From an uncultured Planctomycetota bacterium (GTDB taxonomy: Bacteria; Planctomycetota; Planctomycetia; Isosphaerales; Isosphaeraceae): DNA of 64,000 nucleotides. This document shows positions 22,557-35,400 of this stretch, piece by piece (positions within the stretch are counted from its first letter, which is position 1; each line of letters starts with the position of its first letter). Location of the stretch: positions 138,062 to 202,061 of the forward strand of contig CAWJTV010000012.1 in assembly GCA_963845755.1 (NCBI GenBank). The letters run 5' to 3'. Made by a program: the position numbers and the translations under genes. The notes below the pieces were generated by a model, which searched no databases, had not been told where the DNA came from, and saw nothing but the letters and a program-made list of their open reading frames with translations.

Positions 22557-25421
22557 TCACGATGGGGGCTTGCCGATCCTGACGTCGCCGAGCTCCACAT
22601 TCTCGCCGGGTTTGACGGTGAAATCCCGGGAAGGCTCCGAGGTCCGGTACGTCGCGCCGGGGATCAAGGCGGGGAAAGTCAGTCGTCCCTGAGCATCCGA
22701 CAAGCGAACTTGCCTGTAGTGGATCGGGTCGATGACCTGCAACAACTCCGTTTCGGCCGAGAGACGATCGCCCACCGCAAGTCCGCGTTGGTCGAGCGGG
22801 CCGGGAGCGACGACCAACGTGAGCCAGATCAGCCCGCGATTCCCTTCGATCGGCTTGCCGCTCGAGTCGAGCAGCCGCTGAGTGGCCGTGCCGCACGGCT
22901 CGAGCCGGATCGTAACCGGTCCGCCGTCTGCCGACTTGCCAGAGAGATAGGCCGTCGCGCCGAGCTGTCGCTTTGGTTCGAGGAAATAGACGGGGATCGC
23001 AACCTCCGGGGCAAGGCCGTGGATCGTGAAGCGACCGTTGCGGACCACGCCGTGGTCGCCGGACCGCCAATGGCGCCATGGCACGATGGACCGAGTCAAG
23101 ATGACCGGGCTGACCATCGAGACGTCCTGGACCGCCTGACCGTCCGGCCCGATGACTTGACCGCTTACGCTGACGCCTCGGCGGAGTACAGCGTTGATTT
23201 CAAGGGCCTCCTTGCCTGGCTTCGGGTCGCAGGCGATGAAAGCGTGTGAGTAAAAGCGTCGGCCGCCAGGCTTGCCATCGGTCAGCATCCGATGACCGAT
23301 CTCCTGAAGAACGTATTCGTCACTGGGGCCCTCGATCACGACATAACCCGGGGCCGGTGGAACTGCGAGGCGGAACGAGCCATCGGGTCCGGAGCGGCTC
23401 TTCGAGATGAGCGGTGTCGGCACGTCTGCCCAGCGATCTGGATTGAACCATACTCTCGCGTCCGCGACCGGCTTGCCGGATCCTTGCTCGGTGATCTTGC
23501 CACGGATAAGGATGCCGGGGGGCAACGCCAGATCTACCGAGTGCTCGACCGACCCCTTGGGCCACTCGAATCGTTTGGTGTCGGTTAAGTAGGGCTGTCC
23601 TTCCGGTGCAAAGGCCGATATATGAAAGCTGTCACCGGGCGAAGGATTCACGCGGAACCGCCCTCCGCCGTCGGTCTCGAATTCCATCGGGTACATCTGG
23701 TTCCCCTTGACGGCCCCGACCTCGAGCAAGGTGTGAGCAACCGGCTTGCCGGTGTCCGCATAAGTGACGCGCCCGGTGACGGTCTGAGGGGGTAGGAGCG
23801 TCCTCGTCAGTTGCTTTGGATCGGGAGTACGATCCGTTTCGACTTCAATTCTTTGCAGGCCAAAGCGCGGGTCATTGACGGAGAGGAAGACGAGCAGTTC
23901 CTGGCCCACCCCGCGCAGGGTGAATCGGCCGTCGGAGTCGGTGCTCACCGGCTTGGGCCACCCGGAGAAGTCGTTGGCACGAATCCATGGGAAGAAAACG
24001 CCGTCGGGGGATTGAGGAAGCCGCGGGTTAAACCGCGGGCCTACAACACTGACCGACGAAACCGAGACACTGACGCCGCGAGCGGGCCTTCCTTGCACGT
24101 CGAATAGGCGGCCTTGGATCAGTTGCTCCGGTCGGAGCCTGATGTCGGCGGCCGGCTGATCGGCGTCGAGGTCGAGCTGGACCCAGCCGACACCGTAGCC
24201 CGGCGCCAGGGCGACAGCGCAGAACGTGTCATACCGTGCCGACGAAGTTCGCGGCGCGTCGAGTCGATACAGCCCCGAGCTGTCACTGCCACCGTGACCG
24301 ATCGGAATCGAATGCCAGCTCACCATTTGGTCGACACGACTCGACATTTTCAGGCGGGCGTGGACCATGACCGTTGCATTCGGCACCGGCTTTCCGTGAG
24401 GGTCGAGAACGCGGCCAGTAACGAACATTCGGCCCGGACCTGGGACATCGGACTTGGCCGCTGGCGGCGGCTGCCCGGTCTTGCGCGGTGCCTTTGGCTC
24501 ATCATTCATCGCAAGAGAATTGGATAGATAAAGGCCGCCGGTGGCGACGGCGCCGAGGAACAACGCGGTCACGGCGGCCAGCTTCAGCTTGTGGATCAGC
24601 ATGGATCTCAATACCTCGTGCGCCAGGGCTATCGTTGAGGCGGAAAGGGCATCGACCGCCGCCGGTCCGGCCGCGAAGCGGACTGCGGCCCGCGTCGTCA
24701 TCTCGAACAGAGCGGATGAAACCGACGCCGACGCCGGCCGCGAGTCGAGCACGGCAGCTACCGCAGCGGCGGGCGCCACAATGCCGCGGCGCATCAGGCC
24801 ACGGCGGAGCTTTTCGCGCGCCCGGGCCATGCGGCTGCGGACCGTGCCATGCGACCAGCGGAGCTGCCGGGCCGCCTCGCGGACCGTCAAACCTTCGAGG
24901 TAGCACAGCACGACCGGCAGACGGAACCTGTCCGGCAGTCGCGCGATCTCGCCGTGCAGCGCCTTCGCGTGCTCGCGGGCCATGATCGCCTCGTCGGCCG
25001 GCGGGACCGTCGGCTCGGCAGGCGCCTTTGAGCCGGCGCGCATCATGGTGCCGATCTCCTCATTCTTGCGTCGGTGAGCGAGCCGCAGCCGGGCACACCG
25101 GGCCGTACGGGACGCAACACCATAGAGCCAGTTGCACAGACGGTCGCCGTTCCGGATTGAGCGTGCCCTCCGAGCCAGCACCAGGAACGTGGCTTGGAAG
25201 GCGTCTTCGGCCAGGTGTTGGTCATCGAGGAGGTGCCGGCAAACGCCGAGCACCATCGGCCCGTGCCGCACCACCAGTGCAGAGAAGGCCGCCTCGCCGC
25301 CCGTGTCCCGCCCAGCGTTGAATCGCTCCAGGAGTTGGCGGTCGGAGAGCCCGACCACGGAACCCTCCTCGAAGAGCGTCCCGATCTGCTGGGCCACGGC
25401 CCCGATTTCTAATTGCCCCAT
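22557..25421 (-). CDS. ECF sigma-70 factor with TM helix and carboxypeptidase-regulatory-like repeats
   Basis: SDRQLLERF, RHGPMVLGVCR, AEDAFQATFLVL, VVLCYLEG, GTVRSRMARAR; TM; repeated GRVLDPHGKPV-type units. Confidence 0.92.
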   Translation of the reverse strand: MGQLEIGAVAQQIGTLFEEGSVVGLSDRQLLERFNAGRDTGGEAAFSALVVRHGPMVLGVCRHLLDDQHLAEDAFQATFLVLARRARSIRNGDRLCNWLYGVASRTARCARLRLAHRRKNEEIGTMMRAGSKAPAEPTVPPADEAIMAREHAKALHGEIARLPDRFRLPVVLCYLEGLTVREAARQLRWSHGTVRSRMARAREKLRRGLMRRGIVAPAAAVAAVLDSRPASASVSSALFEMTTRAAVRFAAGPAAVDALSASTIALAHEVLRSMLIHKLKLAAVTALFLGAVATGGLYLSNSLAMNDEPKAPRKTGQPPPAAKSDVPGPGRMFVTGRVLDPHGKPVPNATVMVHARLKMSSRVDQMVSWHSIPIGHGGSDSSGLYRLDAPRTSSARYDTFCAVALAPGYGVGWVQLDLDADQPAADIRLRPEQLIQGRLFDVQGRPARGVSVSVSSVSVVGPRFNPRLPQSPDGVFFPWIRANDFSGWPKPVSTDSDGRFTLRGVGQELLVFLSVNDPRFGLQRIEVETDRTPDPKQLTRTLLPPQTVTGRVTYADTGKPVAHTLLEVGAVKGNQMYPMEFETDGGGRFRVNPSPGDSFHISAFAPEGQPYLTDTKRFEWPKGSVEHSVDLALPPGILIRGKITEQGSGKPVADARVWFNPDRWADVPTPLISKSRSGPDGSFRLAVPPAPGYVVIEGPSDEYVLQEIGHRMLTDGKPGGRRFYSHAFIACDPKPGKEALEINAVLRRGVSVSGQVIGPDGQAVQDVSMVSPVILTRSIVPWRHWRSGDHGVVRNGRFTIHGLAPEVAIPVYFLEPKRQLGATAYLSGKSADGGPVTIRLEPCGTATQRLLDSSGKPIEGNRGLIWLTLVVAPGPLDQRGLAVGDRLSAETELLQVIDPIHYRQVRLSDAQGRLTFPALIPGATYRTSEPSRDFTVKPGENVELGDVRIGKPPS

Positions 25422-25622
25422 GTTCGCCGATTCCCCGGAGGCCGCGACCGGTGCGCCCAATGTCAACTCGTCCCGCCGCAATATACTGTCGCGCCCTCCG
25501 CCATCGTATCCCGCAGCCGACTTCAGAATTCGCAATTCTTGGCAAACGGGCTGGACGCGTTATCCTGGTAGTCGTGCGCTCATAAGCTCGCTGAGGTCGA
25601 AGTACGGACGCGCTTTTCGTTG

Positions 25623-25943: not shown

Positions 25944-27152
25944 TTAACCGTCGGACCGCCTTCGATGAGGCCATATTGCTTCATACTGTCGAGCGCCAGC
26001 ATCGCTTCCGCGGCATCCTACGTAGCTATCCTCTTCCGCGATCCGCGCCTCGATCTTTTCGATCGCCTCTTCGAGTGTCATCCCTTCGGGCAGGTCGTCA
26101 ACGGGCGTGCCGTCGTCGCACGCCTGCACGAGGCGGTCGCGCACCGCTTCCAGCCCCGCATACCTGATGATCTTCCGAGCGACATCGTCTTGCATCAGCT
26201 CCTTGTTCCTCACCGCGATCGCCCGCGCAAGCTCATCGCCGCCTTGGGGCAAGCCCAGTTGTGCCACGGCTTCCGCAACCCGTCGGCACAGGGAGAGGAT
26301 GGCCCCCGGCTCGAGCCCCGTATGCCGCTGAATTTCATCATCAGACACGCCCGGCTCCGCCAGGTACATCTGGTGAATAAGGTAGAACCACTGGCGCACC
26401 GGAACGGGCGAATCCTCGAAGAGCACGCCGGTCGTGACGGCGTACGACTTTCCGCACGCCGGGCAGGCGACCTCAGCCGGCGGATCGTCTCCTGCCTCCG
26501 CCCCGCAGTAGGGGTAGGCCGGGCCGTCCGGCCACCGCACCCATTCCAGCAGCCAAAGCGCCACCGCCTCTTCGGCGAATATTCTGCGAAGCGTCTCCTC
26601 TTCCATGTTGCCGAGCATGGCGAGGAGGTCAAGCAGCGGAAAGCCCGTCGCAGCGGCCTCGTTACTACCGGCAGGCTCATTGCCGGGCAACCCTTTGGCC
26701 GCCCGCCGGACGGCGTCCAGCGGTGCCTCGCAAGGATTCTCCGCGAGAATTCCCGCGGCAATCAAATGGCGGAACGCGGCACGCAGACCCGTCAGGTAAG
26801 TAGCCGTCGAATGGGGTGACATCCTGGCGCTGAGTTCGGCGGCGTAGGCGGAAACATCCGCAGGGCTGATCGATTCCAGGGCCAGCCCGTGAACTTCAGC
26901 CCAACGGAAGAATCGCCCTGCCTGCTGCCGGTAGAGATTGCGCGTAGCCCCGCTCCAATCCGGCTGATTCAGGAACGCGAGGTACGCCGCCACTGCCCCC
27001 TCCCCGGCGGCGCGCACCGATTCGGGCACGTTCCTAGGCATGCTGGTTTCGGGCCGGATGGCCGTCGGCCCCGGGTCGAACGGCATACACCCCACGGGCA
27101 TGTCATCGCCGGGAGAGCGCAGGGGAGCGGTGTGTTGGATTTCCTCGGGCAT
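25944..27152 (-). CDS. Integrase N-terminal SAM-like domain fused to an IS1595-like Zn-ribbon/HTH region
   Basis: ATRNLY...RFFRW...YLTGLRAAFRHL...ENP followed by VRWPDGP...CPACGKSYAVTTGVLFEDSPVPVRQW. Confidence 0.65.
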   Translation of the reverse strand: MPEEIQHTAPLRSPGDDMPVGCMPFDPGPTAIRPETSMPRNVPESVRAAGEGAVAAYLAFLNQPDWSGATRNLYRQQAGRFFRWAEVHGLALESISPADVSAYAAELSARMSPHSTATYLTGLRAAFRHLIAAGILAENPCEAPLDAVRRAAKGLPGNEPAGSNEAAATGFPLLDLLAMLGNMEEETLRRIFAEEAVALWLLEWVRWPDGPAYPYCGAEAGDDPPAEVACPACGKSYAVTTGVLFEDSPVPVRQWFYLIHQMYLAEPGVSDDEIQRHTGLEPGAILSLCRRVAEAVAQLGLPQGGDELARAIAVRNKELMQDDVARKIIRYAGLEAVRDRLVQACDDGTPVDDLPEGMTLEEAIEKIEARIAEEDSYVGCRGSDAGARQYEAIWPHRRRSDG

Positions 27153-27167
27153 TTCCTTCTCCTTCGC

Positions 27168-27594
27168 TCAGTGGCGCTCGCAGCCACGCAGCAGCGCAAC
27201 GCGGCCATACAGCGGGCTGGCCCGCTTCTGAAACGTCCCGTCTGCCGTGACCAGCTCGGCATCGAGCTTGCGCCGCGGCGAGGTACAGACAGTCCTGCAA
27301 GTTGTGCTTGATCTCCAGCGAGAGATTCAGCGCTTCATCCAGCAGATCCGCCTCCGGGACCAGCGTGATGGCCCCGATTCCAAGATGGCGCAGCCAGTTC
27401 CGGCACCGTGCTTGGGTTTCTTCCTGCCCCGCCTCGCCCGTCCGCACACAGCGAGTGACGGCGGCTAGGACCTCCAGCCGGATGAGGTCGGGGGCGAACA
27501 GCCGGCCTGGGCTGTCCATCAACTCCAGCGCGGCTTCCGTGCTGATCTCCGGCAGATACCATTTCGCGGCGACATTGGCGTCTACCACGATCAT
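27168..27594 (-). CDS. vapC: PIN-domain toxin (VapC-like), frameshift near 27275
   Basis: MIVVDANVAAKW, APDLIRLEV, QDCLYLA, then LVTAD in the shifted frame. Confidence 0.85.
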
Positions 27595-27750
27595 CCGCGC
27601 CGATCCCTGTCCTCACGGATCACCTTGGCGCTGTCGGAAAACGTCCCGTATTTCGCGCGGAGTTCATCCAAGCCGGCCCGTAGCTCTTGGGCGATCGCGC
27701 GCTTCTTCGCCCGCGCCGCGTAAGCGTTCACGCCTCGGTACAGCGTTTTT
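27591..27750 (-). CDS. Putative antitoxin, N-terminus uncertain
   Basis: ...LDELRAKYGTFSDSAKVIREDRDRRG with ATGA overlap onto the PIN gene. Confidence 0.6.
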
Positions 27751-28205
27751 CCGGAAAGGTGTCCAACGAGCTGGGGGGAACTTTGAGCGAGGCGGAGGGA
27801 CCACGGCGATGGGCCCGATCTCGAGTTTGACCGCGAGGAAGTTGTCGAAGCATTACCCGCAGGGGTGTTAATAGCGGAAGAGGTCGCCGGTGCCGTGCTC
27901 CGCGACATGGTAGTGAGCAGCAGCCCCGACAGCGAAATCCTCTCCGCGGCGGCCGGCCTCCCGCCCGAGGTCCTTCGTGCACTACTCGGCCTACTCCGCG
28001 ATGTCCGGGGTGCCAGCTTCAGGTGGATGCAGCTTCGGTTAGGCGCGAGCCCGTCAGCCCCGGATTCCCTCGATCCGGCGGGCTTGCGCCGGGTGTGCGA
28101 ACTACTGGACCGCACGCATCCCGAGCGGGGTGCTCAAGGCGATCGGGGAGAGTGACGGCACCGGTTGACCATGTCGGTGGGCCCGATGGCACTGGGATAG
28201 TATTT

Positions 28206-28525: not shown

Positions 28526-29734
28526 ATGAGGCTGATGTTACTCTCAACGGTCCTGGCGGGCGGAACCCTGGCATTCGCAGGGCCGTCCGAGTTCCAGCCG
28601 CCGGTGAGGCTCAAGGCGGCCGGCGTGCCGGTGCGGGTCGACGAGCCGGGCTGGGCATGCCCGTGCTGGGCCGACATTGATGGCGACGGCAAGAAGGACC
28701 TGCTCGTCGGGCAGTACCGCGATGGGAAGATCCGCGTCTACAGGAACCTCGGGGACGGAAAGCTCGCGCCGGGCGAGTGGCTGAAGGCCGACGGCGCTGT
28801 GGCCGAGATCCCGGGCGTGTGGTGATGCACCACCTCCACTCCACAGTTTGTGGACCTCGACTGCGACGGCCGGCGCGACATCCTCTCCGGCTCCTATTCC
28901 CGCAGGGGAAACGACCACATGGCGGGCCTGTTCCAGGTCCTGTACGGCAAGCCGGACGGGACGTTCCGCAAGGCTGAGGTGCTGAAGGGCACCGACGGCG
29001 AGCCGCTGATCATCCCCGTCCGGAGCAAGCCCGGCAAAGGGGACGACTGGGCCAATGGTATCTGCACCCGGCCGTTCGCGGTCAACTGGGACGGTGACGG
29101 CCACCTCGACCTGGTCGTCGGCACTCTCCCCGGCTTGTTCTACCTGTTCAAGGGTCAGGGGCACGGCAAGTTCCTCCCCAAGCCGGAGGAGATGAAGGCC
29201 GGCGACCGGCCGCTGAAGTTCGAGGGCTATCACGGCGACCCGTTCGTGGTCGACTGGGACGGCGACGGCGACCTTGACATCCTCAGCGGGTCGGACGAGG
29301 GGGGCGTGCAATGGGCCGAGAATCGCGCCGGGCCGGGCAAGCCGCCCCGCCTTGAGCCGTTCCGAATGCTGATCGAGCACGGCCCCAAGATCGAGTACGG
29401 CCAGATCCTGCAAGATGCGGACCTCAAGGGGCCGCTGGGCGACACGCGCATCTGGGTTAACGACGTCAATTCCGACGGGAAGCTCGATATCCTGGTCGGC
29501 GACCTGGCGCCGCTGATCTCCCCCGCCGACGGCCTGAGCGAGGAGGAGTTCAAGACGCGGTTCGCCGAATGGACGAAGGCGCTTGGCGAGGCGGGCGAAA
29601 AGATGCAGGCGGCGAGGAACGACAAGGAGAAGCGGCAGGAGGCGCAGCAGCGCTACGTGCAACTCTACGAGCAGCGGCTGCAGTTCATGAAGGAGGACCG
29701 GACGGGCTTCATCTGGCTATACCTCCGCAAGTGA
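28526..29734 (+). CDS. Secreted FG-GAP/VCBS repeat protein with in-frame UGA (candidate selenoprotein, 402 aa)
   Basis: ORFs 28526-28825 and 28850-29734 share one frame and are separated only by TGA 28823-28825; DxDGDGxxDLLVG repeats on both sides; signal peptide. Confidence 0.8.
28840..28854 (+). promoter_or_regulatory. Putative bacterial SECIS hairpin
   Basis: TCCACA-GTT-TGTGGA; G-first loop begins 20 nt after the UGA. Confidence 0.65.
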
Positions 29735-29861: not shown

Positions 29862-31383
29862 GTAGCCGGTCACAGGGCGGCAAAGTTGGAATCAGGTGGC
29901 TTTGATTTCCGCTTGAGCGACCGGCAGGAGGGAGGGGATCGCTTGGCCGTTCCGAGCCGCTTGGAAACACGAACTCAGATAGTCGAGGACGTTGCGTCCT
30001 TGCTGCCGGCACGTGGCGACCACTGTAAACATCCGCTCGACGAACCGGCTCCCCGCCTTGCTATCGGTTCCCCCGCTGATCCGACGCCAGATCACCGCGT
30101 GACGCACGGCGCGCTCCGCCGCATTGTTCGTCGGCTCCACGCCGGGGAACCACACGAAGTTCCAGAGACCTTCTTCCACTCGGAGGATCTCCGCGCAGGT
30201 TCCCGCCGTCATGGCGCACCGGCACACCGTGCCGTCCTCCAACGCACGGCGAACCGCGGGTCGGAGCCGGAGAATCGATTCCCGCATGCAATCGTACTCC
30301 AGGGTGCCGTCCCGCGCCCGCGCCAGAAACCGAAAACCCGGTCCGACAGCCTCATTAGCCGCCGTCCGATCACCCCCGCCTCGCCACCCCGGTCGATCAT
30401 CGCCTGGAAGTCACGGCGGAGATGACTCCAGCAGATCTGCCGCCAGAACGCCCAGATCCAGTTGTACGCGCTGAACCGATCGCTGCCGACGACCTGATCT
30501 TCCTTGTCCCCCAACACAGTCCGAGCGACCTTGCCAGAGCGAGCCGCGGCGATGGTAAAGACCGTGGCCATCGCGGTCACCGTCACCCACAGCCAGGCCT
30601 TGCGTCGGTTCTCGCGCCACCCCGTCTCATCGATGTTGACGACCTCAGCCTGATGGACCGCGTCGGCCAATTCCTGATAAGGCGCTGCCAACGCCAGAGC
30701 CGACTGCTGCTCCAACTTGGAGATCATCCCGGTGGAGATCGACAGGCCAAACAGGTCGGCGGAGAGTTGCTGGATCTGCCGCTTGCTGAGACGGTAGGCA
30801 CCCGCCAAGGTCGCCAAGACGGCCTGCAGAGAGAGGCCAAAGCTCCCGGTGGGAACACCCTCGGGCAGAGTGCCGCAGGTGGTCACTCCACAGTCCGGGC
30901 AGGTGAGGCGATGCAACCGGTATTGGTTGACGACTGGCTCAATCTTGGGCAGGTCGGCGACCTGATGGATCAAGGGCGTCGGATCTTCGCCGTGCAAGTC
31001 GTGGCCGCACCGCCGGCAGGAACGGGGCTTGCAATCGCGGCACGACCGGAGTTTCTCGGGCGGGACCAACGTGCGGAACGCCTTGGGATGGCCGGGTTGT
31101 GCGCCGCGGCTTCGTCCGGAGGGCGGAGCCGGAGGCTTGCGCTTCAGTCCGATGGGATCGGTGGAGGGCGGCTTGGACGAGTTGGTGGAGTTCTGGTTAA
31201 GCCGGCGCTCGAGCTCGGCGATCCGTTGGTAGAGGGAGTTCAAGAGGGCCAGTAGCGCGGCTTGGGCCTCGGGCGGAACAGTGTCCCAGAGAGGCTCAGG
31301 AATCGGAGGCTTCGACAGTGGAGGGATCATGCCAAGAATACTACGAACTTGCTGAACAAAAGGTTCGGACCGTGAACGGGCAC
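29862..31383 (-). mobile_element. IS66 family element, single-ORF type (transposase 29892-31330, frameshifted)
   Basis: Ends GTAGCCGGTCAC / GTGCCCGTTCAC; NSTNSSKPPS, IDETGW, SDRFSAY, CWSHLRRDF, EPTNNAAER. Confidence 0.9.
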
Positions 31384-32445: not shown

Positions 32446-35400
32446 CGGTGTGCGTCACATTAGTTGGTGGTACAGGCGATCAGTTGTGCGAGAAATCGCG
32501 GCTCCAGAAGGCTTCCCATTGGCCTTTTTCGCTGCGGTAGAGCGCGCGGAGGTGGCAAACGGCATTGGCTCCGTCCTCGCCCCAACGCATGCCGGCCAAC
32601 TTCAGTCGTTGGCCCACGACCGTTTTGCACGCGCGCTCCACCGCGCCACTGCCGATGCACCAGCCGTGGGCCAAGTATTCGGGGTACTCCATCCGATGCG
32701 CGTTCCGCTGGAGGTAACCGACCAGTTCGTCGACGGCCTCGCTCAGGCCCACCCGGCGCGGCCAGTCCCCTTCGCGCAGGACCGCCGCCAGAACCGCGCC
32801 CCCTTCCTCCTTCAGGAGATGACACCATTGCCGCGCTTGATCCTCGGATTGGTCCTCGTCCTGAGGGTAAAGCAGCCGTGCCAGTCCGGTGAGCTTCTCC
32901 GCGGGGTGAAAGAAGTCAAGGATGATCACTTCCACTCGCGGGAAGTTCTCCCGCAGCCGGTCCTCCAGCCCATTGCCGCCGTCGGAGAGCCCGATCCAAC
33001 GATCGGCCCGATCCATGCCGACGTGCCCGGCCGGCGTGCGGAGCAGCGGACCGAAGTCTTCCAAGGAGTACATCCCCGAGAGGTAACGCGCCTGCATCGG
33101 CAACGGCTTCTCGTCCGGCCACGGCCATTCGGGACTGGGGTTGCAGACCATCCCCACGTAGGCCATCCGGCCCTCGGCGGCGCCGCCGGCCTGGCCTTGC
33201 TGCCGGACGCCAGTGGCGTCGAGTTCGACGTAGGCACATCGGCGGCCGTCGTAGTCCTTGTGCCAGGGCCAATCCCCCTTGGGACCCAGCGCCACACCGG
33301 CCTGCACGACGTCCGCTAGCCGTTGACCCGCGCCTTCGGTGGTTCGTTCGACCGTGGATTCCCCGAGCCGAACGCCGGCCATCTCTTCGAGCAGTTCGCC
33401 CCCCTTCTCGAAACTGTCGGCGACCGTCCCGGCCAAGGTCGTGACCCGCTCCAAAGCGGGTGTCAGCTTCCGTGCCGTCAAGCCCGCCGCCTCATCGAAC
33501 GGGAAGCTCCCCTGGCCACAGCACCGGCAGAGATAATAGGCGCGCTGGTAGGGGACAGGACCGACAAGGCTCAGAGGGGTAGGGGCGCGGTGCGAGTGGA
33601 ATTCGGCGGTCATCCCACAGTGGGGGCAGGTCACACTGGAGCCGTGGTATCCGTTTTTTTCTAGGCTGGCAAAGTTAGCTGGAGGCAGCGGTGCTCCAAG
33701 TCCTTGAGATAGGCCTCGGGATTGTGACGGAACCGGCGTTGCTTCCGCCGCGATTCCCGTCGCACCTCCAACTCCGCGCGCCATTCCTGCCAGTCCTCAA
33801 CATAGCCCGGGCTCAACACCAAGCCTTCGTCCGGCCGCAGCCGCGTCGCCAGCCCCGAGATCACCCGCGCCGAGCCCATCACCACCAGGCCCGGCGACCC
33901 CCGACGCCGACCGCTGGCCCGGCGCTCGTGGTAGCGATGACTGCCGAAGGTGTGCTCCAGGTCGTTATTCGTCCGCGGCAGATCCGACGACTCGTAGCAG
34001 GCAAACAAGCCCGGCCAGTAGCTCCGGGTCACCTTCACGAACTGCTTCAAACCCGCCCGCACCGCGGGCTCGTCCGTCGTCGCCACCGCCCGGCGCATTC
34101 GCGCCAGCAGTTGCACCAGCCGCCGTCGCACCTTCTTCGCCGGCAGCCCCTCCTCGTTCTTGAGGATCCGGGCGGCGCGCTTGACCCATTGGTACGACTC
34201 GCGCACCGCCGGGAACAGCGCGGCCGTCTCCTCCAGCCCGCGCCGCAGCAATTGCCTCAGCCGTTTCAAACCCCCGGGCAGGTCGCCCGCCTTGGCGACG
34301 ACATCGTCCAAGCTGGCGGCAATCCGGCTCAATCGATCCTGCCGCTTCAGCCCGGAGGCCGAAAGCGGTGGCAGTCCGTCGTCGGTCAAGGCCCCGCGCA
34401 CCGCGGCGCAGTAGTCCCGCACCACCTCCGCCTCCGCGTCCTCCGCGTCGTCCTCCAGCTCCTTCTCCGCCTGGCGCTCGATCTTCCGGATGCCCCGCAC
34501 CCGCTTCTTCAACTCCTTCTTGGCGTGGCGATCCGCCTCGTAGATCGGCTTGGCCGCCTCGCGGAAGTAGTGGAAATGGCAGAGCTGATGGGGGACACCT
34601 TTGAGGGCGATAGCCACGGCGTTGCGGATGCTCTCCTGACCGTCGGAGACCACGCCGGTGATCGGCACCGGCAGGACCTTCCGCACCTGGTCGATCAGGC
34701 CGGCCAGGTCCTGGGCCGTGGACGACAGCAGGCTCTTGGCCAGGAGGATCTCGCCGGAGAGGCAGTCGCGCAGCACCCAGAGGACCTCGTGGCCGACATC
34801 CGGCTGCAGGCCGTCGATGGCCAGGATGACGCGGCCCTGCGGGCGCAACAGCGGACCGAGTCGCTGGGGATCGGCCGTGGCCAGGGACCGCAGCTCGTCG
34901 TAGCGGTCCAACAGGTTGGTGACGGTGCGTTCGGCCAGGATGAGCCCGCGGTGCGTGAGCTCGCGGTGGATCTCGGGGATGCTGCGGTGCTCGGCATAGC
35001 GGAGCCGGCCGACCAGCGCCATGACGTCGAGTCCGAACTCATGATAAGGCAAGGCGAAGTGGGGCTCGGCCTCGGGCCGATAGGGGCGGAGGAAGCGGGG
35101 GCAGGTGGGATTGGGGCAGCGTCGGATGGTCAGGGTCAGTCGGAAGACGCCGTCGAGAGTACTGATGGTGCGATAGTTATTGTAGTCGGCATAGGTCCGG
35201 TGCTGGCATTCGGGGCAGTCAAGAAGGACCGGCGTCAGGGTCAGGGCCCGGTCCGGTTGCGGGCGTGGTCGTTGTCGTCGTTTGCGCATGGGTGGATTCC
35301 TCCCGGGGTTCGATCTCCTCTTTCTACGCTCCCGGAGGGCTTTCCAGCCACTTTTGCCAGCCTAGTTTTTTTTGCGCCAGTCGCTGTGCGAGGGCCTTGG

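Follow-up and report, generated by a model that had tools for sequence, protein, structure and literature searches.

Comparative evidence for a probable new selenoprotein family with an FG-GAP beta-propeller scaffold in Planctomycetota and Verrucomicrobiota

The DNA analysed here (hereafter the window) is a stretch of 64,000 nucleotides from an uncultured Planctomycetota bacterium of the family Isosphaeraceae, and the gene located at 28526-29734 on its forward strand very probably encodes a genuine selenoprotein in which an in-frame TGA, codon 100, specifies selenocysteine (Sec). In the mechanism that we propose, UGA100 would be decoded as Sec by a Sec-tRNA(Sec) brought by SelB, and SelB would be recruited by a hairpin within the coding sequence, UCCAC(A)-GUU-(U)GUGGA, located 14 nt downstream of the UGA, while the terminal TGA, which has no such element, would direct termination; in this scheme SelB binding and selenium insertion are steps that we infer. 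The product would be an exported protein of ~380 residues after signal-peptide cleavage, in which five repeats with calcium-type loops would form a five-bladed propeller. A helical hairpin comes next, then two C-terminal strands that would close the ring, and the vicinal Sec100-Cys101 pair, in a long loop entering blade 2, would be the functional centre. We rate this gene as a new selenoprotein family that uses a known mechanism, and as the founding example of a family that is widespread among soil bacteria.

The frame at 28526-29734 contains 402 codons plus the terminal TGA and, when open reading frames (ORFs) are read and translated, is uninterrupted except for one internal TGA at 28823-28825, where the local peptide is EIPGVW-U-CTTSTPQFVDLDCDG and the next residue, Cys101 (28826-28828), is the vicinal partner of Sec100. 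An earlier reading of this DNA, made from its sequence alone, had proposed a single frame with a W-TGA-Cys context in an otherwise undamaged gene; both parts, like every other detail of that reading that could be checked, agree with what was found, since no lesion other than TGA100 was seen in the frame, and orthologues at 52-80% identity are colinear with residues 1-402. The codon at 29732-29734 is a second TGA that is read as a true stop, and homologues L015-L018 also end in TGA right after the C-terminal motif. Because the terminal TGA is a stop here and in several orthologues, recoding at TGA100 would be local, and TGA would have two meanings in one mRNA. Translation with table 11 produces two ORFs, one of 99 aa (28526-28825) and one of 294 aa with a GTG start at 28850 (28850-29734, forward strand), and the protein database contains this second, truncated C-terminal piece (P0003, 99% identity), which is the split that the sequence-only reading had anticipated from standard annotation.

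Conservation of the TGA column extends well beyond the window. TGA is found at column 100 in 94 distinct homologues from metagenome-assembled genomes (MAGs) of Planctomycetota and Verrucomicrobiota, at identities down to ~30%. When 61 related genomes were searched with stops read through, 10 of 10 family homologues showed exactly one TGA, and extraction and translation placed it at the identical column in all 10 loci, from 73% down to ~30% identity. Among 121 same-family genomes, 26 had a match at E <= 1e-20, and TGA occupies column 100 in 25 of 25 loci taken from that scan (L044-L068), bringing the two genome scans together to 35 of 35 homologous loci. A pattern-plus-tblastn scan of named genome records added 80 loci, comprising 71 with TGA, seven with Cys (L103, L106, L119, L121, L127, L139 and L148) and two with neither (L115 and L143), in MAGs labelled Isosphaeraceae, Gemmataceae, Pirellulales, Phycisphaerales, Brocadiaceae and Verrucomicrobiota plus a few probably mis-binned taxa.

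Where TGA is replaced, the substitute is cysteine. Database proteins P0004, P0006 and P0010, each covering at least 95% of the query, have Cys-Cys aligned to Sec-Cys in the context VWCCTSSTP or IWCCTSPTP, and the full-length proteins P0157, P0171, P0227 and P0258 from a 50%-identity representative library also have Cys-Cys at these columns. With the seven Cys loci, these seven database proteins make 14 non-TGA homologues that keep the motif, all 14 with Cys at column 100 (followed by Cys in 12 and by Val or Arg in two), and Trp was never found at this column among the homologues examined; the sequence-only reading had expected TGA or Cys here, and 94 and 14 sequences, respectively, have them. 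In an alignment of 59 sequences (A3; 52 TGA forms and 7 Cys forms) column 100 is invariant as U or C (59/59) and column 101 is Cys in 56 rows; of the 94 TGA forms, 88 have Cys right after the TGA, two Asp, two Gly, one Ser and one His. In a maximum-likelihood tree obtained by a quick search, not a careful run, and with a midpoint root used for drawing only, Cys forms occupy at least three separate positions and TGA forms lie on both sides of the root, which suggests repeated Sec-to-Cys replacement in the family. Two loci contain paired copies: L126 has one copy with TGA-TGT and another with TCA-GGT (Ser-Gly) at the same column that retains the complete hairpin and seems to have lost its Sec codon recently, and L082 has two TGA-containing paralogues ~200 bp apart.

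Downstream of the TGA lies a perfect hairpin, TCCACA-GTT-TGTGGA at 28840-28854 (+), that resembles a selenocysteine insertion sequence (SECIS). Its 5' arm is 28840-28844(45), its loop is AGUUU (GUU if A45 and U49 pair) and its 3' arm is 28850(49)-28854; 14 nt separate the UGA from the stem, and the loop G, at 28846, lies 20 nt past this codon, as the sequence-only reading had noted for a hairpin with a G-first loop. The family version, UCCAC-AGUUN-GUGGA, has 5 of 5 pairs in 89 of the 94 TGA forms and 4 of 5 in the other five, with the loop AGUUN in 88 of 94. According to a 2026 review (PMC13188914), the consensus for a bacterial SECIS (bSECIS) calls for an apical loop of 3-5 nt matching N1-G-U-N-N2, an upper stem of 4-16 bp, a UGA-to-loop distance of 16-37 nt and a minimum free energy <= -7.5 kcal/mol. 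The loop (A-G-U-U-N or GUU), stem (5-6 bp) and spacing (19-20 nt) are all within this consensus, and the minimum free energy of the window's 43 nt, -7.5 kcal/mol, is exactly at its limit, with values of -15.5 to -19.5 in three relatives. Compared with canonical bacterial selenoprotein genes of the E. coli fdhF type, as described in that review (PMC13188914), the gene is alike in having an in-frame UGA, a stem-loop directly 3' of it in the ORF, G-U at the start of the loop, 19-20 nt spacing, Cys homologues and selA, selB, selD and tRNA-Sec in the genome, and it differs in an upper stem of 5-6 bp, near the lower limit of the range, in having no conserved lower stem that could be found across the family and in encoding a protein unrelated to formate dehydrogenase.

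The codons that make up the hairpin depart from the usage of the rest of the gene, another feature remarked upon in the sequence-only reading that the family data bear out. The G+C content at third codon positions is 0.90 for the gene, and the CCA at Pro106 is the sole CCA among its 27 Pro codons. Pro106 is CCA in 85 of the 94 TGA forms, compared to a share of 8.1% among 1730 Pro codons elsewhere in 70 of these genes; against the background of the same 70 genes, the codon preceding Pro106 has T as its third base in 92 of 94 (11.4% elsewhere) and Val109 is GTG in 87 of 94 (35% elsewhere). These preferences point to a strong synonymous-codon constraint acting on the hairpin at the RNA level. The hairpin is lost in six of the seven Cys-form genes, with L148 alone retaining it: out of 5 pairs, L119 keeps 4 (with a changed loop), L121 2, L127 3, L139 3 and L148 5, while L103 and L106, judged by sequence and not by a pair score, have diverged at the hairpin codons and no longer have the motif. 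Cys forms without the hairpin encode Pro by the genome-typical CCG or CCC and Val by GTC, and within the same genes the corresponding sites of other blades form only 1-3 pairs.

Covariation in the stem is partial. The variants are UCCGC/GCGGA (n=5; CCG with GCG, Val-to-Ala), UCCCC/GGGGA (n=1; CCC with GGG) and a G-U intermediate (n=1), so that pair 4 in 92 aligned sequences is A-U in 83, G-C in 5, C-G in 1, G-U in 1 and unpaired in 2; double changes in these 92 sequences fill 7 cells versus 0.6 in shuffles, with 0 of 500 shuffles as high, a difference that relatedness can inflate. A consensus from RNAalifold on 34 sequences contains the 5-bp stem only, with no conserved lower stem, and an Rfam scan of 28600-29100 returned two sub-threshold chance matches and no family. 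The centroid structure of the 81-nt region fold contains a second perfect 6-bp hairpin, GUGGUG-AUG-CACCAC at 28819-28833 (+), that encloses the UGA; this candidate was rejected as a functional element, as it derives from the W-U-C-T codons of the window's subfamily, is absent in other subfamilies and is probably incidental.

The genome also contains what would be needed to make a selenoprotein, a check that the sequence-only reading had proposed. The assembly (14.27 Mb in 49 contigs, 87.9% complete) encodes SelA (406 bits), the SelB winged-helix domain (67.4 bits) and SelD (376 bits), and ARAGORN finds one tRNA-SeC(tca), on contig C4, so that selA, selB, selD and tRNA-Sec are all present. Of the 121 same-family genomes, 85 encode SelA; among the 26 with the TGA gene the count is 24, the exceptions (G029 and G004) being 73% and 76% complete; since kin are not independent, this co-occurrence is a measure of consistency and not a statistical test. 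Full Sec gene sets in Gemmata and Isosphaera are noted in PMC4807772, whose main text names no such protein.

Several observations weigh against the assignment of Sec. The window's hairpin alone has an energy of -4.9 kcal/mol (z -1.83, equalled by 15 of 200 shuffles), and folding of the 81-nt region is at chance level (z -0.24); because DNA of 70% GC makes folding energies uninformative, the evidence for the hairpin is comparative and not thermodynamic. On the comparative side, 5 of the 94 TGA forms have one stem mismatch, most stem pairs are invariant across the family, covariation was weak in the initial set of 34 sequences (equalled by 30 of 500 shuffles), and part of the nucleotide conservation is imposed by the conserved peptide PQ[FL]VD. 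One of the two search patterns used in the 80-locus scan (P[QL][FL][VA]D...) spans that same hairpin-constrained peptide, and because it favours hairpin-compatible peptides the ratio of 71 TGA to 7 Cys is biased toward TGA forms. The second member of the pair is not universal, as 6 of 94 TGA forms have a residue other than Cys at 101, which weakens a strict Sec-Cys redox-pair model. Three relatives have further lesions: L021 and L022 have frame changes within the gene, and in L023 (from G001, a genome of the same genus as the window), a paralogue-type copy, a conserved Trp column is occupied by another in-frame TGA (D-W-D-G-D-G to D-TGA-D-G-D-G) and the stem has one mismatch; these three may be decaying copies or assembly errors. 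No RNA contig bridging the TGA was found in public runs under a 31-letter rule, and the presence of selenium in the protein, however probable we hold it to be, is a prediction from sequence.

How these points bear on other explanations can now be considered. SECIS-independent read-through, or recoding to Trp, Cys or Gly by a near-cognate tRNA, with a hairpin that only slows the ribosome and a full-length product that contains no selenium, would be in keeping with a small hairpin (5-6 bp) and with the lack of a matching Rfam family. It fits poorly with the replacement of TGA by Cys, the sulphur analogue of Sec, in 14 of 14 motif-keeping non-TGA homologues, with Trp columns that are encoded by TGG and never by TGA (except in the probably damaged L023), with a loop and spacing that agree with the bSECIS consensus, and with the occurrence of the gene alongside SelA in 24 of 26 genomes and a full Sec machinery in this one. 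Because Cys, and not Trp or Gly, is the natural replacement and because the gene tracks the Sec machinery, we consider read-through to another residue very unlikely.

That the TGA is a true stop, either in a pseudogene or between two genes for a 99-aa secreted peptide and a 294-aa protein starting at GTG 28850, is what automatic annotation implies by calling the 294-aa piece, and 117 of the 120 best database matches, covering 63-73% of the query only, are pieces of this kind; the extra lesions in L021, L022 and L023 could be counted on the same side. However, TGA is at the exact column in 94 sequences from two phyla at identities down to ~30%, with the protein conserved on both flanks and a frame that never shifts across it, the N-terminal 99 residues contribute signal peptide and blade 1 to what is modelled with confidence as one propeller, and the 294-aa product would have an incomplete ring and no signal peptide, all of which makes a genuine stop extremely improbable. 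An error of sequencing or assembly that changed TGC or TGG to TGA can be practically dismissed, as the same codon recurs in independent assemblies and the contigs of the four independent public runs that cover the codon contain no other letter at 28823-28825, the result of a check for TGG or TGC that had been suggested from the sequence. These runs are soil and rhizosphere samples, three of them metatranscriptome libraries, and because RNA libraries may contain DNA they leave transcription of the gene unproven. In one soil DNA run (X1), the summed contig depth is 68.8 in the bin containing the TGA and hairpin (28823-28869) and 2-11 elsewhere, the pattern that would arise if this near-invariant stretch were common to many related genes in the sample; a scan for promoters and terminators gave nothing beyond chance.

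Having Sec100 as the favoured assignment, it is useful to consider the protein that would contain it. Pfam matches to FG-GAP_3 (1.8e-23, 83.3 bits, cut-off 26.9) and FG-GAP (3.2e-10, 40.1 bits, cut-off 22.1) place it among FG-GAP repeat proteins, and an AlphaFold2 model based on the 59 sequences of A3 has a mean predicted local distance difference test score (pLDDT) of 91.6 and a predicted TM-score of 0.89. Since the model is confident across residues 91-110 (pLDDT 90-92), the two 'halves' on either side of the TGA make one domain. Only residues 1-19 are of low confidence, with pLDDT <50 at residues 1-7 and 10-19, which is usual for a signal peptide, and this segment, MRLMLLSTVLAGGTLAFAG (28526-28582, forward strand), has the basic residue, hydrophobic core and A-F-A of a probable Sec-type signal peptide, making export via this N-terminus probable.

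Five DxDxDGxxD calcium-type loops, all on the forward strand, mark the repeats. The blade 1 loop, D50-D58 (28673-28699), is supported by its sequence, by conserved columns and by a Pfam FG-GAP match at residues 48-71, and the blade 2 loop, D110-D118 (28853-28879), with D110, D114 and G115 invariant in A3, overlaps the final 2 nt of the hairpin's 3' arm (28853-28854) and continues downstream. Blade 3 has its loop at N187-D195 (29084-29110; conserved columns D187, W188, D189, D191, G192 and D195), blade 4 at D243-D251 (29252-29278; D243 invariant, W244, D245, D247, G248 and D251 nearly so) and blade 5 at D313-D321 (29462-29488; D313, D317, G318 and D321 invariant). These are followed by a helical hairpin of residues 339-386 (29540-29683; modelled helices 339-362 and 367-386, pLDDT 96-98) and by a pair of strands at residues 388-399 (29687-29722; modelled strands 388-393 and 395-399) with the motif G-[FYW]-[VI]-W-[LV]-[YF], in which G394 and W397 are invariant among 12 sequences and nearly so among 59; in the model, this strand pair probably closes the propeller.

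Integrin-type propellers are seven-bladed, and we read the predicted fold of this protein as a five-bladed propeller of five FG-GAP repeats. The best solved matches in Foldseek (2bwm at E 2e-7, 9etn, 9oee and integrins) are FG-GAP propellers, namely the Psathyrella lectin, CRTAC1, UmbA4 and integrin alpha, all at TM-scores of 0.3-0.4, whereas an exhaustive VIA-align search puts five-bladed glycoside hydrolase (GH) families GH43, GH62, GH32, GH68 and GH130 first (Z 15-18.6, root-mean-square deviation 3.2-4.3 Å, 7-14% identity); the fold shared with these GH families gives no indication of glycosidase activity. The protein therefore resembles the FG-GAP/VCBS propellers (PF13517 and PF01839, as in the integrin alpha head, Psathyrella velutina lectin, CRTAC1 and UmbA4) in its Pfam matches, its DxDxDGxxD loops and its best Foldseek matches, and differs from them in having five repeats, TM-scores of only 0.3-0.4 and, for the predicted model, a best fit to five-bladed folds; no listed member of the FG-GAP/VCBS proteins compared contains Sec.

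In the model, Sec100 and Cys101 fall within a 12-residue coil (residues 95-106) just ahead of the first strand of blade 2. In FG-GAP topology the calcium loops are on one face and such a loop is on the other, close to the mouth of the channel, and by this analogy the Sec-Cys pair should be located there; export, this position on the propeller face and the chemistry of the pair are likewise matters that we infer. Only columns 100 and 101 have Cys family-wide, while Cys47, Cys180 and His236 are conserved solely in the window's subfamily (24, 26 and 29 of 59 rows). By analogy with known centres, the pair could act outside the cytoplasm either as a selenenylsulfide with redox activity or as a ligand pair for a soft metal or metalloid, a functional reading to which we give about even odds.

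Each of these possibilities has a precedent. The adjacent Cys-Sec of mammalian thioredoxin reductase (GCUG) is a selenenylsulfide redox centre; a centre of that type, in the C-terminal tail of a flavoprotein, is not what is found here, as U-C is at internal positions 100-101 and no flavoprotein domain was detected. PQQ-dependent methanol dehydrogenase, an exported periplasmic propeller enzyme with calcium and a vicinal Cys-Cys disulfide at its active site, is eight-bladed and has tryptophan docking and PQQ, and its likeness to this protein is one of analogy only, with no match to it in the Foldseek or VIA-align searches. The families with neighbouring Cys and Sec in Table 1 of PMC13188914 bind metals or organometals; the CopZ-family (2Fe-2S)-binding protein form 1 (GxUC) and the CU-motif proteins SaoL, HgcA, MbdU and SaoC have the two residues side by side, as does the protein encoded here. 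Relative to all of these adjacent Cys/Sec selenoproteins, the protein described here has the order U-C in an internal propeller loop, and not in a C-terminal tail or a ferredoxin- or CopZ-like fold, shows no sequence similarity to them (no selenoprotein model in an NCBIfam scan) and is probably extracytoplasmic.

A more ambitious proposal, which we put forward tentatively and would ourselves judge somewhat less probable than its negation, is that this is the first beta-propeller selenoenzyme: an extracytoplasmic, calcium-stabilised five-bladed FG-GAP propeller in which the Sec-Cys pair, with Cys47, Cys180 and His236 from equivalent loop positions of neighbouring blades in the window's subfamily, would form a selenenylsulfide or soft-metal centre near the channel mouth, with Sec as the ancestral and dominant state. 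The last element of this proposal is suggested because TGA forms fall to either side of the midpoint root and Cys forms are dispersed in the tree; to our knowledge, Sec as the ancestral and dominant state would set this family apart from most selenoprotein families.

The literature and databases consulted contain no account of such a protein. The 119 prokaryotic selenoprotein families in Table 1 of the 2026 review (PMC13188914) include no PF13517, PF01839, FG-GAP, VCBS or propeller entry, and the text of that review makes no mention of FG-GAP, VCBS, propeller, repeat or Planctomycetes. The terms FG-GAP, VCBS, propeller, repeat and Planctomycet are absent from the deep-Sep paper and the BSepDB main text, with a listing in the BSepDB family table (Table S2) still possible, and the open full-text literature, a scope that excludes subscription papers, yielded nothing relevant linking selenoproteins or selenocysteine to FG-GAP, VCBS, propellers or planctomycetes. 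NCBIfam has no model for the family, the only match being XAC2610_fam at 19.2 bits, below the 35-bit cut-off.

The gene neighbourhood is of little help in predicting function. Directly downstream of the gene is an IS66-family transposase at 29892-31330 (-), present as two overlapping ORFs, of which 30209-31330 (-) matches DUF6444, zf-IS66 and the first part of DDE_Tnp_IS66 and 29892-30287 (-) matches the end of DDE_Tnp_IS66, so the transposase is probably frameshifted; a weak IS66-like ORF is at 33661-35289. Upstream are a PIN-domain (VapC-like) ORF at 27103-27594 (-), a 174-aa ORF at 27591-28115 (-) that overlaps it by 4 nt and is a candidate antitoxin partner, and an integrase-like ORF with a Phage_int_SAM_1 match at 25944-27152 (-). 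The PIN, integrase and IS66 pieces suggest a neighbourhood rich in mobile DNA. A 992-aa ORF at 22557-25535 (-) fuses extracytoplasmic function (ECF) sigma-70 regions 2 and 4 to carboxypeptidase-regulatory-like domains, and large CarboxypepD_reg proteins adjoin family genes in L133 and L138, with a sigma-70/WD40 fusion upstream in L101. No conserved operon was found among 10 loci examined in the window's subfamily. In a second subfamily, with the motif G-U-C-I-G-F-T-P-Q-L, same-strand genes for WD40-repeat proteins are on both sides in L100, L102, L104 and L110 and upstream only in L101; L110 encodes a WD40 protein joined to a BlaR1 M56 peptidase domain, with a BlaI-type repressor gene between this fusion and the selenoprotein gene. 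From the context in the window and the loci examined, no function can be read.

One consequence of the proposed recoding is that annotation of this family would be systematically in error. Four fragments that were inspected start at residue 109 or 132, the first start codons past the TGA, and in the 50%-identity library over half of 150 listed matches begin at query residue 109-112 or 131-132. The database records would thus be C-terminal fragments without the signal peptide, blade 1 and the Sec site, and a profile combined with the motif TGA-N14-TCCAC-AGTTN-GTGGA could repair hundreds of them. The unusually uniform minimal SECIS, along with natural controls in the form of Cys-containing homologues that lost it, would also make the family useful for testing SECIS models.

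Known selenoproteins are for the most part enzymes with a thioredoxin fold or a metal cofactor; an exported FG-GAP beta-propeller would be a new scaffold for selenocysteine. The family would also extend what is known of selenium use in under-studied phyla, as the main catalogues consulted do not discuss the selenoproteomes of these groups. The database record of one near relative, P0068, has the name Singulisphaera rosea, and if this record is from a cultured strain then direct biochemical tests would be possible. If the tentative proposal of a beta-propeller selenoenzyme is true, then soil Planctomycetota and Verrucomicrobiota would have a selenium-dependent extracellular oxidoreductase or metal(loid)-handling activity.

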